NCBI GenBank assembly: GCA_963837825.1
Contig: CAWIOR010000006.1
Location: forward strand, 111,954 to 175,953
Origin: an uncultured Chloroflexia bacterium
GTDB taxonomy: Bacteria; Chloroflexota; Limnocylindria; Limnocylindrales; CSP1-4
Length of the DNA: 64,000 nt
Direction of reading: 5' to 3'
Position 1 is the first letter of the stretch, and every line of letters begins with the position of its first letter. Shown here piece by piece: positions 37 through 63,391 of this stretch. Both the position numbers and the translations under genes were made by a program. Under the pieces are notes generated by a model that was not told where the DNA came from, searched no databases, and worked only from the letters and a program-made list of their open reading frames with translations.

Positions 37-2520
37 GTGCCCAGGAGCGGCTGGCTCGCGATCGGCTCGGTCCTCGCGGCGCTGGCCGGGCCGGCGGCGG
101 TCGAGCGGCTCGGGGTCGGCGGCGGGTCGGCGCCTGGTCGCCGGCTCGCGTTGGTCGTGGCCACGATCGGCCTGGCCGGCTCACGATCGCGCGCGACCCG
201 GCTCCAGGCCCGGCCGGCGCCTGCTCGCCGCTCGCGGCGGGCGCGCTCGCGATCGCGCTCCGGCTGCTGCTCGAGCGGCCCGCCCGTCGCCGAGCCCTCC
301 ATCCCGCTCGGCGATGGGCCGTGGACCGCGGACGTCGTCGGAGTCGGCTCGCCGCGCGACGGCCAGCAGTCGGCCACCCTGCGCGCTCGACGCCCGGGGG
401 ACACGCGGGTCGCGGCCACGCTTCCCCGCTACCCGGAGATCGCCCCGGGCGAGCGCGTCGCGACCTCGGGTCGGCTCGAGCCGCTGCCGGCCGACGACGG
501 CGGCTACGGCACGTACCTGCGCCGGATCGGCGTGGCGGCCACCCTGCGCGGCGCGGTCGCTCGACCGGCTCGCGAGCGACGGGTCGGCCGCCGGCGCCGT
601 CGAGAGCCTGCGGCGGTCGTCCGGCGAGGCACTGACCCGCGCCCTGCCCGAGCCGGAGGCGGGCCTGGCTGCCGGGATCCTCATCGGTCTCCGCGACCGG
701 GTCGATCGCGACCTCGCCGGCGCGTTCACGACCGCCGGGGTCAGCCACGTCGTCGCGATCTCCGGCTGGAACATCGCGATCGTCGCGGCCCTGGTCGGCG
801 GGTCTCCTCCGTGGCCGGCTCGGCCGACGCGGCCGGTCGGTCGTGACGCTCGTCGCGATCGTCGCCTACACGGTCGCCGCCGGGGCATCTCCGTCGGTCG
901 TCCGGGCGGCGGTCATGGCCGCGGTCGTCCTGCTCGCCCGGGAATCGGGCCGGGCCGGGGCGGCCGCGACCGCGCTCGGCTGGGCGGTCGTCCTGCTCCT
1001 GCTCGCCGATCCGGGCACCGTCGCCGATCCGGGCTTCCAGCTGTCGGTCCTGGCGACCGCGGGCCTCATCGCCTGGGCGACCCGGATCACCGAGCGGCTC
1101 CGATCGTGGCGCGCCGGCCTGCTGCCCGGCTGGCTGGCCGAGAGCCTCGGCGTCTCGTTCGCCGCCGAGGCCGCCACGTTGCCGGTCGTCCTGGCCGGGT
1201 TCGGGCGGTTCGCGGTCCTCGCCCCGGCGGTGAACCTGCTCGTCGTCCCACTCGTGCCGCCGGCGATGGCCGCCGGCACGCTCGCCCTCATCGGTGGCTG
1301 GCTCAGCCAGGCCGGCGCACCCGCGATCGTGGCGACCATCCTCGGGCTGCCGGGCTGGCTCGTGCTGGCGGCGCTCGTGGCGGTCGTCCGCGGGGCGGCG
1401 TCGCTCCCCTTCGCCAGCGTGGACGCTGCCCCCGCCATGGGGCATCTTGGCCGGGCTCGGTGCGGCCGCAGCGGTCGCCGTCGTCGCGTCCGGGGGCCTC
1501 GGTCCTCTCAGGACGCAGTTGGGTCGCCTCGCGGCGCGGCACGCTCGGCACCCTCGACGCGTCTCCGTCAGACCGCTGCCACGCTCCGCCGAACCGACGA
1601 CCGGCCACCGACCATCGCAGCGTCGTGACCGCCCGTCTCGGGGCGCCCGGGTCCTGGCGGTCGTCGTCGCCCTGTGTCTCGTCGCCGTCGTCGTCGTCGC
1701 GGCGAACCGGCCGGACGGGCGGGTCCGGGTGACGGTCCTCGACGTCGGCCAGGGCGACGCGATCCTCGTCGAGGGCGGCCGCGGCGGTCGGCTGCTGGTC
1801 GACGGCGGGCCGGATCCCGACCGGCTCCTCGTGGCCCTCGACGCGCGGCTCCCGCCGTGGGACCGGCGGATCGACCTGCTCGTCCTGACCCACCCGCACG
1901 AGGATCACGTCGCGGGGCTGGCCCTGCTCCTCAGCCGCTACCGGGTCGGCCGCACGTTCGAGCCCGGGATGATCGGCCCGGGACCGGGTTATCGGGCCTG
2001 GGAGGCGGCGCTCGACCGGCTCGCGCCTGCGACCCGACCGGCTGGCGACCGGCGACCGGTTCGGCCTCGACGAGGTCCGCTTCCGGGTCCTCTGGCCGGA
2101 CCCCGGCGCCGTCCCACGCCAGCCGGCGGACGGCGGCACGGCGATCAACAACGTCTCGATCGTCCTGCTCGGCGAGGTCGGCCGCGAGCGGTTCCTGCTG
2201 GCCGGCGACATCGAGGAGGGGATCGACCCGATCCTCGTCGCCCGTGGCCTGCCCGGGTCGACCTGCTCAAGATCGCCCACCACGGCAGTCGGACGTCGTC
2301 GACCGGGCCGTTCCTCGACGCCGTCCGGCCGCGGGTCGCGGTCGCCTCGGCGGGCAAGGGCAACCCGTACGGCCACCCGACGAAGGCGACCCTCGACCGG
2401 GTGGCCGCACGCGGAGCCGAGGTGCTGCGGACCGACCGGAACGGGAGCGTCGAGGTCACCTTCGACGGCGCGACCGAGCTCGACGTCCGACCCGAGCGGA
2501 GCGACCCAGCCGCGAGCGCG
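37..2520 (+). CDS. comEC: DNA internalization competence protein ComEC/Rec2. It has an N-terminal DUF4131-like membrane region, a polytopic competence domain and a C-terminal metallo-beta-lactamase domain. It can only be read through with at least 2 frame changes (near 846 and near 1300-1630) and may be 5'-truncated by the window edge.
   Basis: Pieces in three frames: 'LAIGSVLAALAG...', 'VLAGFGRFAVLAPAVNLLVVPLVPPAMAAGTLALIGGW' and 'VTVLDVGQGDAILVEGG...LLVLTHPHEDHVAGL...DRNGSVEVTFDGATELDV'. These match ComEC membrane and MBL-domain hallmarks. Confidence 0.75.
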
Positions 2521-59962: not shown

Positions 59963-60301
59963 TTGACCTACACCGATCGGACCCTCACCTGCGTCGACTG
60001 CGGCGTCGAGTTCATCCACTCGGCCGCCGACCAGGAGTTCTACGTCGAGAAGGGGTTCGTCTCCGACCCCAAGCGCTGCACGAGCTGCCGGGCCAGCCGT
60101 CGAGCCGCCCGCGACAGCGGCGAGAGCGACCTTCGCGACATCGGCGGCCCGCGCGGCTACGAGCGCGGGGATCGGCCGGCCCGCGAGTACTTCGCGGTCC
60201 TCTGCTCATCGTGCGGCAACCAGGCCCAGGTCCCGTTCAAGCCGCGGATGGACCGCCCCGTCTACTGCTCGGACTGCTTCCGCTCCCACTCGGCCGGCTG
60301 A
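59963..60301 (+). CDS. Double zinc-ribbon protein with four CxxC pairs; unknown function.
   Basis: TTG start 8 nt after GGGAGG. 'CVDC...CTSC...CSSC...CSDC' are spaced as two ribbons. Confidence 0.55.
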   Translation: MTYTDRTLTCVDCGVEFIHSAADQEFYVEKGFVSDPKRCTSCRASRRAARDSGESDLRDIGGPRGYERGDRPAREYFAVLCSSCGNQAQVPFKPRMDRPVYCSDCFRSHSAG

Positions 60302-60547
60302 CCCACGCCGGACCGACGGACCGACGCCGGCGCCCCCGTGGGGAGCCGGCCTGTTCGATCCGCCACCCGAGAGACGCGATGGCCGGTCGGTTCGGAGTCG
60401 CTCACCGGTGAACGACCGACGATCCGCCCGGCCCTCGCCAACGAGCCGACCCGGTGCCGGCCGTCCCGACTCGTTGCCCCTTGATACCGTCATCGCGCCG
60501 CCGGGGTTCAACCGGCGACTCGGCCGTGGGCCGGATGTCGGGACCCG

Positions 60548-60910
60548 ATGCGACCTCTGCCGTGATGCGAGTCGACGCATCGTCGGGAGCGCTCAACGGG
60601 CGGCCGCGGTCCCTGGATCCGCGGGCCATCCCGTCCTTGATGCGAGTCGACGCATCGTCGGGAGCGCTCACGGAACCTTCGTGATCACCCACGACCGAAG
60701 CGGCGGATCGCCGAGACGATGAGTCGCGCGCTCGCATCGCCTGACGGGCTGCGGCGTGATGCGGCGACTCGCATCACAGACAGGACCCCGCGCCGGTCGG
60801 CGCGAGACGGACCGGACGCGGCGAGACCCCGACGCAGCATCGGGGTCTCGCAGAGGTCCGATCCGGGAGGAGGCCGGATCGGCCGAGTGGAGTCGCATCC
60901 GCTGACGAGT
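60548..60910. repeat. Cluster of palindromic repeats. Two identical 33-bp direct repeats (60563-60595 and 60638-60670, 'TGATGCGAGTCGACGCATCGTCGGGAGCGCTCA') are spaced 75 bp apart. A degenerate third copy lies near 60716 and inverted copies of the core GATGCG-N6-CGCATC at 60758-60775 and near 60891. There is a GC hairpin at 60821-60850.
   Basis: Read directly from the sequence. The repeats lie in a 670-bp convergent intergenic region between the zinc-ribbon gene and the S51 peptidase gene. Confidence 0.6.
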
Positions 60911-60974
60911 CTCGTCGGCTGGCGTTTCCGGGTCATCATCGACGGGTAAACCCTGCCGGTCGACCGGCTGGCGA

Positions 60975-61682
60975 TCAGAGGCGGAAGGCGTCGCCGTCGC
61001 GGAAGCGCTCCCGGTGGCGCCCCCGCCAGACGGTCACCCGGCCACGGCCGCGGACTGACCAACCGCCGTCGCGCCCGATCGCCGCGGTCCCGTCATCGAG
61101 CCCGAGCACGACCGTCCCGCGCGGCGCCCGCAGGATCATCAGCGCCGCCAGCGGCTCCGGGATCTTGTCGTAGTGGGGGAACGCGGCGACCCCGGGCACG
61201 ACCCCGAGCGCCGCGCTCGTAGCGCAGCGGCAGGTGCGGTGGCCGGCGGACGAGCGCCTGACAGGCGCACAGGACCATCGCCCCGGCCGAGCAGCCGGCC
61301 AGGACGCCGCCCCGCTCGTGGACGGCCTGGGCGGCGGACCAGACCGCGCTGCCCGACAGCGGTCCGGAGGAGGTGGCCAGGGTCGCCGCCGGACAGGTAG
61401 ACGAGGTCGGCCTCGGCGACCGCCTGGACGCTGGCCGGGTCGTCGGCATCGGCGCGGTCGCGGACGAGGACCGCCTCGACCTCCGCGCCGAGAGCCTCGA
61501 AGTGCTCGATGCCCATCGCCGCCCAGCGCCGGAAGACGTCCTCGCCGTCCGGGGCGGAGGCGGTCGGCAGGATGGCCACCCTGCGGTCGGGCCCGACCGG
61601 TCGCCGCGAGCAGCTCGGCGTCGAGCGCGGCGACCGCCGGCAGGAATTCGTCGGCTCCGAGAAGCGCCACGGGTCCGCTCAT
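60975..61682 (-). CDS. Peptidase S51/cyanophycinase-like (type 1 glutamine-amidotransferase-like) protein; at least 2 frame changes.
   Basis: 'TVAILPTASAPDGEDVFRRWAAMGIEHFEALGAEVEAVLVRDRADADDPASVQAVAEADLVYLSGGDPG', '...AGCSAGAMVLCA' and 'VAAFPHYDKIPEPLAALM'. Confidence 0.6.
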   Translation of the reverse strand: MSGPVALLGADEFLPAVAALDAELLAATGRARPQGGHPADRLRPGRRGRLPALGGDGHRALRGSRRGGRGGPRPRPRRCRRPGQRPGGRRGRPRLPVRRRPWPPPPDRCRAARSGPPPRPSTSGAASWPAARPGRWSCAPVRRSSAGHRTCRCATSAALGVVPGVAAFPHYDKIPEPLAALMILRAPRGTVVLGLDDGTAAIGRDGGWSVRGRGRVTVWRGRHRERFRDGDAFRL

Positions 61683-61798: not shown

Positions 61799-63391
61799 AT
61801 GACGGTCCGCCAGCGCTGGACGATGCTCGCCGCGATCCTCGGCTCGTCGGTCGTCTTCCTCGACGGCACGATCGTCAACATCGCCCTGCCGAAGATCGGC
61901 CAGGAGCTGCCGGCCGACCTCCTCGGCGTCCTCGAGGGCCAGACCTACGTCAACACTGGCTACCTTGCCGTCCTCGCCGCCCTGCTGATCCTCGGCGGCG
62001 CGATCTCGGATCGCTACGGCCGCAAGCGCGTGTTCACGATCGGCCTGCTCGGCTTCGGGGCCACCAGCGTCATGTGCGGCCTGGCCCCGACCCTCGAGGC
62101 GCTCGTCGTCTTCCGGCTGCTCCAGGGGGCCGCGGCGGCGCTGCTCGTCCCCGGATCGCTCGCCCTGATCACCGCGACGTTCGAAGGGCAGGCCCTCGCC
62201 GAGGCGTTCGGGCTGTGGGCGGCGGCCACCTCGGCGGCGACCCTGCTCGGTCCGGTCGTCGGCGGGGTCCTCGTCCAGGATCTGACCTGGCGGTTGGCCT
62301 TCCTGGTCAACGTCCCGCTGGTCGCCGTGGCCCTGCTCGGGCTCGCCCGCGGTGTCGGGGAGACGGTCGTCGAGGCCGCCGGCGGACGGTTCGACTGGCT
62401 CGGCTCGCTCGACGTCGTCCTCGCTGATCGGTGGCCTGTCGTTCGGGCTGATCCGCGGCCAGCAGCAGGCCTGGGCGGACCCGGTCGCCTGGATCGCGAT
62501 CGGCGTCGGGCTGGTCGCGGCGGCGCTCTTCCCGATCCTGATGTCGCGCCGGAGCGACCCGCTGGTGCCGCTCGGCCTGTTCCGGAACCGCCGCTTCGCG
62601 GTCATCAACCTGTCGACGTTCCTGATCTACGGCGCGCTCTACGTCTACCTCGGCTACCAGGCGATCTTCCTCCAGGGGACCCTCGGCTACAGCGCCCTGG
62701 CGGCGTCGGTCGCCGGCCTGCCGGTGGGCATCCTGCTGACGGTCCTGTCGACCCGGGTCGGCTCGATCGCCGGGCGGAGCGGGCCGCGCCGGTTCCTGGT
62801 CGTCGGCCCCCTGGTCATGGCCGGCGGCCTGCTCTGGTACGCCCGGGTCCCGGCGACCAGCGCGGCCTGGCGAGCGGAGCTGGCCCAGCCGTCGACGCTC
62901 GTCCCGCCGGTCTCGACGCTGATCGACATCCTGCCGGCGATGGTCGCCTTCGGGATCGGGATCTCGCTCGTCGTGGCTCCCCTGACGAGCACCCTGATGA
63001 GCTCGATCCCGGTCGCCCGGGCCGGGCTCGGGTCGGCCATCAACAACGCGATCTCGCGGGTCGGCTATCCGCTCCTCGGCGCGCTCGTGTTCATCGCCAT
63101 CACCGTCAGCTTCTACGGCGGCCTCGCCGACGCGGACCGGGCGTCGACCCGAACGATCCGCAGGTCCGCGCCTCGATCGCCCCGCTCAATCCTCCGCCAG
63201 CCGGCTCATCGGCGGCCGTGATCGAGGCGACGAAGGCGGCGTCGACCGACGCCTTCCGGCTGGCCCTCCTGGTCAGCGCCGTCCTGCTGGCCGTGGGCGC
63301 CGCCGTGAACCGGGTCGGTCTGGGCGAGGCCGACGCCACCGCCACCGACGAGCTGCCAGCCACGGAGTCGCCGCCGGAGCCGGCCGAATGA
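61799..63391 (+). CDS. MFS transporter of the DHA2 (EmrB/QacA)-like family; about 2 frame changes.
   Basis: 'MLAAILGSSVVFLDGTIVNIALPKIGQEL' and 'GGAISDRYGRKRVFTIGLLGFGATSVMCGLAPT' match the 14-TM layout. Confidence 0.8.
   Translation: MTVRQRWTMLAAILGSSVVFLDGTIVNIALPKIGQELPADLLGVLEGQTYVNTGYLAVLAALLILGGAISDRYGRKRVFTIGLLGFGATSVMCGLAPTLEALVVFRLLQGAAAALLVPGSLALITATFEGQALAEAFGLWAAATSAATLLGPVVGGVLVQDLTWRLAFLVNVPLVAVALLGLARGVGETVVEAAGGRFDWLGSLDVVLADRWPVVRADPRPAAGLGGPGRLDRDRRRAGRGGALPDPDVAPERPAGAARPVPEPPLRGHQPVDVPDLRRALRLPRLPGDLPPGDPRLQRPGGVGRRPAGGHPADGPVDPGRLDRRAERAAPVPGRRPPGHGRRPALVRPGPGDQRGLASGAGPAVDARPAGLDADRHPAGDGRLRDRDLARRGSPDEHPDELDPGRPGRARVGHQQRDLAGRLSAPRRARVHRHHRQLLRRPRRRGPGVDPNDPQVRASIAPLNPPPAGSSAAVIEATKAASTDAFRLALLVSAVLLAVGAAVNRVGLGEADATATDELPATESPPEPAE

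Follow-up and report, generated by a model that had tools for sequence, protein, structure and literature searches.

Classical REPs are present in tens to hundreds of copies per genome, those of E. coli need a bulged stem, and REP/RAYT systems have been described mainly in Proteobacteria. The traits that define REP, BIME and REPIN elements are a conserved stretch at the 5′ foot of the hairpin and an arrangement in inverted doublets (PMC3479197; PMC3337134); in E. coli, the stretch at the 5′ foot is GTAG (PMC3479197). The motif described here, from a stretch of 64,000 nucleotides that we call the window, is likewise a short extragenic palindrome that can form a hairpin, with a stem of 8 bp and a loop of 6 nt. 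At the 5′ foot of this hairpin lies an asymmetric stretch, CCyGTCc, that is comparable to the GTAG of E. coli but differs from it in sequence. As with REPs and BIMEs, singlets, direct copies and inverted doublets all occur, inverted copies form the boundaries of the clusters, copies are gained and lost between related genomes and lie in any intergenic context, and the motif is dispersed at non-orthologous loci of one genome (L002 and L004, on different contigs of one MAG). By contrast with the described elements, the copy number is apparently low, with one cluster in 64 kb and exact-core matches of 4 and 1 per representative MAG, which is an undercount (variants exist). The stem is near-perfect and the loop conserved, whereas the E. 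coli REP stem is bulged and imperfect; inverted copies are separated by a linker of variable length, unlike in a canonical REPIN; and the hosts belong to the Chloroflexota. A small, non-coding and intergenic nature, inverted terminal sequences and insertion polymorphism link the motif to MITEs and similar small non-autonomous elements (for example Correia/NEMIS, RUP, ERIC). However, neither a target-site duplication nor a fixed length was detected for the motif, and its unit is about 30 nt rather than an element of 100–300 bp with defined ends. We hold with moderate confidence that the cluster in the window is made up of copies of a REP/BIME-type (REPIN-like) element, a short palindromic repeat dispersed over intergenic regions, and that it has expanded locally. 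The repeat is new, apparently low in copy number and lineage-restricted, and it belongs to an ordinary kind of element.

The cluster is flanked by two genes that face each other, zf_Tbcl and peptidase S51 (Table 1), in a window with a G+C content of about 73%. A sequence-only reading had described this place as a long convergent non-coding gap of about 670 bp, and that description holds: the gap is 673 bp, and the GC3 frame plot contains no coding signal from about 60330 to 60950, with no frame showing the GC3 excess typical of real genes. The hexamers GATGCG and CGCATC occur nine times in the gap, compared with a mean of 0.36 per 673 bp, and GAGTC and GACTC occur nine times, compared with a mean of 1.0; for both pairs, the gap is the maximum of the window. 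The repeat pattern in the gap is above chance expectation. Promoter and terminator consensus scans called nothing. The left-flanking zf_Tbcl protein is 98% identical to its L037 ortholog across 113 amino acids, and the names attached to orthologs of the neighbouring SbcD-like protein include Chloroflexota and Candidatus Limnocylindrales. When the intact L037 ortholog was used as the tblastn query, the S51 gene was recovered in frames −3, −1, −2 and −3, and thus has three frame changes relative to intact orthologs; the MFS transporter gene beyond it (61799–63358) has two. SbcC, SbcD and zf_Tbcl are intact next to these frame-shifted genes, and further genes of the window likewise appear fragmented. 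The frame shifts in the S51 and MFS genes are probably indels of an error-prone long-read assembly, the alternative being decaying genes or pseudogenes. Therefore, the repeat family was checked in independent assemblies.

Table 1. Features of the gap and its flanks, in window coordinates
Feature	Position	Strand	Remarks
zf_Tbcl (treble-clef zinc-finger) gene, left flank	59963–60301	+	Pfam PF13451 and PF23477
Terminator-like GC hairpin GCCGGCGCCCC...GGGGAGCCGGC, then TGTTCGAT	60326–60351	+	Directly after the zf_Tbcl stop; read from the sequence
Conserved block A	60371–60511	−	Promoter-like TTGAAC (60511..60506) and TATCAA (60486..60481), then a structured segment of ~110 nt
Window-specific insertion or expansion	60514–60750	.	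237 bp; contains both direct repeats and the degenerate copy
Motif copy 1	60555–60595	+	Core GTGATGCGAGTCGACGCATCGT at 60562–60583; 36-nt repeat at 60560–60595
Motif copy 2	60630–60670	+	5′ flank CCCGTCC; core TTGATGCGAGTCGACGCATCGT at 60637–60658; 36-nt repeat at 60635–60670
Degenerate or hybrid copy GATGAGTCGCGCGCTCGCATC	60718–60738	not assigned	Read from the sequence; half-site positions
Motif copy 3, inverted	60756–60798	−	Core GTGATGCGAGTCGCCGCATCAC at 60777..60756; 5′ flank GGGGTCCTGTCT reaching 60789
H1, GC hairpin GCGAGACCCCGACGC/GCATCGGGGTCTCGC	60821–60851	−	In the conserved module, outside the repeat family
H2 hairpin	60855–60884	−	Invariant loop GGGAGGAGG (+) / CCUCCUCCC (−)
Conserved block D	60885–60952	−	Ends in GGTAAACC
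Peptidase S51 gene, right flank	60975–61682	−	Three frames read in the window; PF03575 recorded for orthologs

Within the gap, two identical 33-bp direct repeats, 75 bp apart with a 42-bp spacer, had been reported, and our coordinates agree (60563–60595 and 60638–60670). These are the perfectly matching part of two 36-nt direct repeats that are identical at 35 of 36 positions (97%), and the 18-nt core GATGCGAGTCGACGCATC begins at 60564 and 60639 on the plus strand. The degenerate third copy that had also been seen is present about 40 nt further on, at roughly the spacing of the direct repeats. Only one of the two inverted core copies claimed alongside them is clear, as the 18-mer variant GATGCGGCGACTCGCATC at 60758–60775; what had been taken for the second amounts to CGCATC half-sites at 60733 and 60894. 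The stretches 60616–60656 and 60758–60798 form an inverted repeat with arms of 41 nt that match at 76%. Beyond the cluster in the gap, the 64-kb window contains no further match to the 18-mer at up to three mismatches. Tandem Repeats Finder did not call a 75-bp array because the 39–40-nt stretches between the repeats are unrelated. Two 36-mers that are 97% identical but separated by unrelated spacers would fit better with two insertions, or with gene conversion, than with simple tandem duplication. A 10-nt sequence belonging to the motif, CGGCGACTCG, is present at 60513 and again at 60762; apart from this motif-internal sequence, no target-site duplication was recognisable at the borders of the window-specific insertion. 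At 60680–60690, the second inter-repeat stretch holds a perfect 8-bp palindrome, GTGATCAC, that resembles the outer stem of the motif (GTGAT...ATCAC) minus its middle; it may be the trace left by a motif copy that was excised or collapsed.

The history of the gap was followed in nine orthologous loci that retain the order S51, gap, zf_Tbcl, SbcD, SbcC; they were retrieved through orthologs of SbcD with identities from 93% to 63%. The orthologous gaps range in length from 267 to 1099 bp, and the site appears to be a hot spot for unrelated insertions. The window-specific segment with both direct repeats is missing from the gaps of L037 (93%), L040 (89%) and L041 (85%) in alignment A1. The inverted copy at 60756 is common to the window and L037, where it has a stem-breaking change, and is decayed in L040, which carries another motif copy that replaces gap sequence elsewhere. 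In L046 (73%), there are three copies, of which two share an orientation and the third is inverted; they are located between block D and the stop codon of S51, a position unlike that in the window. The motif is absent from five of the nine orthologous gaps, with no copies in L041, L042, L043/45, L047 and L048. In the gap of the window and in the orthologous gaps, the palindromic motif is confined to the variable spacers between conserved blocks. At a second locus, the L002 cluster, which lies upstream of an aldehyde dehydrogenase gene, is missing from the 89% orthologs L050 and L051. Gain or loss of copies between related genomes is thus seen at two independent loci.

The orthologous gap of L042 (8145–9243) contains tandem repeats of 18 bp (three copies), 15 bp (five copies) and 60 bp (three to four copies), and the start of block A is partly duplicated there. 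That of L046 (4303–5264) contains about 330 bp of lower-GC DNA. In both relatives, this unrelated sequence occupies the variable spacers to which the motif is confined. By eye, a sequence resembling a TPP riboswitch (CUGAGA ... ACCCGCCGAACCUGAUC) is located upstream of an NMT1-type gene at L002 5590–5700 and L051 3560–3690 (minus strand).

The exact 18-mer was found at 14 loci in a scan of one genome per species (596 Gb), a number close to the chance expectation of about 18 by our own estimate. Three of these loci stand out (L001, L002 and L004); they come from two uncultured Chloroflexia MAGs, and variant copies are found near L001 and L002. At L002, three copies make up a perfect 44-bp tandem array, with one inverted variant 260 nt away. 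L004, on another contig of the same MAG, is a single copy 25 nt past a gene. In L001, four copies and a degenerate fifth are spread over three gaps within 8 kb. Family members are present in two further Chloroflexota MAGs, so the motif is not confined to the window. A scan of 241 million metagenome records, using a slightly degenerate pattern with 18 specified bases, gave 22 matches, which is about chance level; almost all are single and in coding-like sequence, and only L026, and possibly L021, are family-like. Because the metagenome matches are single and nearly all coding-like, the motif family is rare and taxonomically narrow. Viral contigs gave zero matches to the motif when scanned, and a literature search for the motif string returned unrelated primers only.

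An alignment of 18 copies defines a motif unit of about 29–32 nt, which consists of the 5′ flank CCyGTCc, an 8-bp stem (GTGATGCG/CGCATCAC) and a 6-nt loop that opens with a conserved AGTC; the consensus is CCyGTCc-GTGATGCGAGTCGnCGCATCa. The 5′ flank is moderately conserved and asymmetric, and no conserved 3′ flank was found in this alignment. The centre of the motif is non-palindromic, with AGTC fixed and the following bases variable. The conservation of this centre and of the 5′ flank at unrelated loci indicates that the copies share descent, as opposed to being convergent binding sites. Every copy is intergenic, and convergent, divergent and co-directional contexts as well as both orientations are represented. 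Clusters are bounded by inward-facing copies in all four cases (the window, L046, L002 and L001), with plus copies to the left of minus copies and the 5′ flanks outward; by our own calculation, the chance of this pattern of outermost copies under random orientation is about 0.004, in a small sample of four clusters. The distance between inverted copies ranges from 97 to about 540 nt, and cluster length from 200 to 700 bp. Of the four possibilities that had been listed for the cluster, a REP/MITE-like family is the best fit: copies of the unit are found in intergenic regions that are not orthologous, and orthologous gaps differ in whether they contain it.

In L001, a small cupin gene (about 1433–1818, minus strand) is bracketed, within 1311–1998, by inward-facing motif copies: a degenerate copy at 1311 and a copy at 1392 on the plus strand, and copies at 1930 and 1977 on the minus strand. 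The bracketed gene could be a coincidence or a passenger inside a composite element.

The dispersed repeat would spread or multiply via a single-stranded hairpin form. The route might be a hairpin-specific (HUH/Y1-type) transposase, as for REPs, or, alternatively, local hairpin-promoted slippage, recombination or gene conversion. In the window, the outcome would have been the addition of two 36-nt copies beside an older inverted copy. The persistence of the copies may be due to the location of their site, apparently with a likely 3′ end on one side (H1) and a likely promoter on the other (block A), a setting in which additional sequence would be tolerated. Their effect, if any, would be incidental, for example as hairpins that act as barriers to transcription or RNA decay between convergent units. 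Neither a RAYT nor an IS200-like or other transposase was found in the surveyed window ORFs (GC3-filtered) or, as far as L001 and the precomputed Pfam records cover them, beside the copies.

The same palindrome could instead be an operator, an explanation that had been put forward as a tandem array for a transcription factor or nucleoid protein and that we consider unlikely. Here, 8 + 8 bp around a 6-bp centre would be bound by a dimeric protein of either kind, within a small regulon that includes the adjacent putative sRNA promoter. The motif shares with palindromic transcription-factor operators a dyad symmetry of 16–22 bp, an intergenic site and the occasional occurrence of several sites in a row; its half-sites are near-perfect palindromes, its copies are apparently few and all intergenic, and most lie 50–250 nt upstream of some start or putative promoter, including the L004 copy (about 110 nt upstream), the L001 copies upstream of cupin, ECF-sigma and dnaG genes, and copy 1 of the window, which is separated by about 50 nt from the promoter-like part of block A. 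However, the copies keep no constant position with respect to any gene or promoter: their placement varies among orthologous gaps, and the site is missing from most orthologs, although these keep the flanking genes and the conserved blocks. The homology that extends into the asymmetric 5′ flank, the non-palindromic centre (AGTC...) shared across unrelated loci and the perfect 44-bp tandem duplication in L002 also argue against operators, and no regulator gene is consistently adjacent. We think it slightly less likely still that the copies function as RNA, that is, as hairpins transcribed in the 3′ regions of the convergent transcripts, where they would terminate transcription, signal RNA stability or processing, or be bound by proteins. 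Sense-orientation copies do occur downstream of a gene in the window, L037, L040 and L004, and the region folds better than shuffled controls (z of −2.4 and −2.9). Moreover, tolerance of G–U is slightly better on the motif strand, where Watson–Crick or G–U pairing is possible at 109 of 120 stem positions, as opposed to 103 of 120 on the opposite strand (15 non-redundant copies). Yet the copies lie in either orientation with respect to transcription (those at L001:5293 and L001:1392 are antisense), the T tract after the stem is absent and a terminator was not called, the hairpins are without an Rfam match, their sequence is conserved rather than covarying, and most orthologs have no copies. The proposal of a small structured ncRNA does not hold for the repeats, and probably does hold for the neighbouring conserved blocks.

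A degenerate CRISPR-like remnant had been suggested as well. Such an orphan mini-array would have 36-nt repeats, unique spacers of 39–40 nt and a decayed terminal repeat, and the window does contain two 97%-identical palindromic 36-nt repeats with an unrelated 39 nt between them and a degenerate third copy about 40 nt on, in outward likeness to the direct repeats and unique stretches of similar length in CRISPR arrays. Unlike CRISPR repeats, however, the motif also occurs as an inverted copy within the same cluster and as solitary copies elsewhere, the 44-bp tandem array of L002 has identical inter-repeat sequence, and there is no leader. The surveyed window ORFs (GC3-filtered) and the genes around the nine orthologous loci yielded no cas domain, and both inter-repeat 'spacers' have zero exact matches in viral contigs. 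A CRISPR remnant is excluded for practical purposes. It is also very unlikely, in our judgement, that the second direct copy is an artefact of error-prone long-read assembly, in which case the family would still be real. The many frame-shifted genes of the window (three changes in S51 and two in MFS) would suit such an artefact, and the exact two-copy arrangement occurs in no other assembly; but the units share 36 nt only, with unrelated 39–40-nt spacers between them, unlike a collapsed or expanded tandem repeat, and similar multi-copy clusters occur in the independent assemblies L046, L001 and L002. Accumulation of a dispersed REP/BIME-like repeat is the reading that we retain for the cluster.

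The length of the gap is explained by conserved, probably transcribed, non-coding blocks together with lineage-specific repeat insertions. Directly after zf_Tbcl, the hairpin at 60326 is kept in L037, L042, L047 and L048; it was not called by the simple terminator scan because a long T run is missing, and it may act as the terminator of this gene. Block A is present in eight of the nine orthologous gaps, with a variable spacer of 17–19 nt between its promoter-like hexamers. Its segment of about 110 nt is very conserved and has a predicted structure of 38–41 pairs that is 97% paired, in which 12 one-sided changes remain paired, as G–U, on the minus strand only. Covariation in block A is weak (60 of 500 shuffles are as good), and the block is a candidate for an undescribed sRNA on the minus strand.

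On the other side of the repeats, the GC hairpin that the sequence-only reading had attached to them is indeed present (H1), but it belongs to a separate, strongly conserved non-coding module and not to the repeat family. H1 hardly varies among the eight gaps in which it occurs, and the entire hairpin is absent from L041; its two variant positions are A–C on the plus strand and G–U on the minus strand. H2 contains three compensatory pairs, and its covariation score was reached by 0 of 500 shuffles. The module from H1 to GGTAAACC (60821–60952) has a constant length of 137–140 nt in the window and in the seven orthologous gaps in which both anchors were matched. Because three of the four mismatches in H1 and H2 are A–C on the plus strand but G–U on the minus strand, the module of H1, H2 and block D is read as the 3′ region of the S51 transcript, probably a 3′ UTR or a 3′-derived sRNA. 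The minus-strand loop of H2, CCUCCUCCC, is probably anti-Shine–Dalgarno-like. An ORF of 20 codons that ends at a conserved TAA (60887–60949) was rejected as a coding sequence; its substitutions have no third-position bias, there is a 1-nt indel in L037, and the start codon is missing in L043. The search with covariance models that had been proposed gave no support: no Rfam 15 family reached its gathering score anywhere in the window, and a search of the gap relaxed to E ≤ 10 returned no credible match, the best hit being a microRNA model with an E-value of 0.18. For functional work, these conserved blocks are more promising than the repeats.

A more elaborate view of the locus seems to us a tentative possibility and rather doubtful as a whole. 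The locus would be compound, with two undescribed conserved RNAs, namely a promoter-driven minus-strand sRNA of about 110 nt and an S51 3′-UTR-type module whose loop CCUCCUCCC mimics an anti-Shine–Dalgarno sequence, alongside a new REPIN-like family of mobile hairpins with a CCyGTCc guide and a hairpin-specific transposase, which would extend REP-type elements to Chloroflexota.

For annotation, the practical consequence, if our reading is right, is that clusters of this kind should not be labelled as CRISPR arrays or operators. The analysis also provides, as a by-product, a map of the long convergent gap, in which the flanking pair of conserved, probably transcribed, non-coding modules is more interesting than the repeats themselves. 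The motif family would also be a handle for finding the enzyme that mobilises it. If the REP/BIME-like reading is true, selfish hairpin repeats of the REP/BIME type populate uncultured soil Chloroflexota too, at low copy number and with a 5′ recognition sequence of their own.
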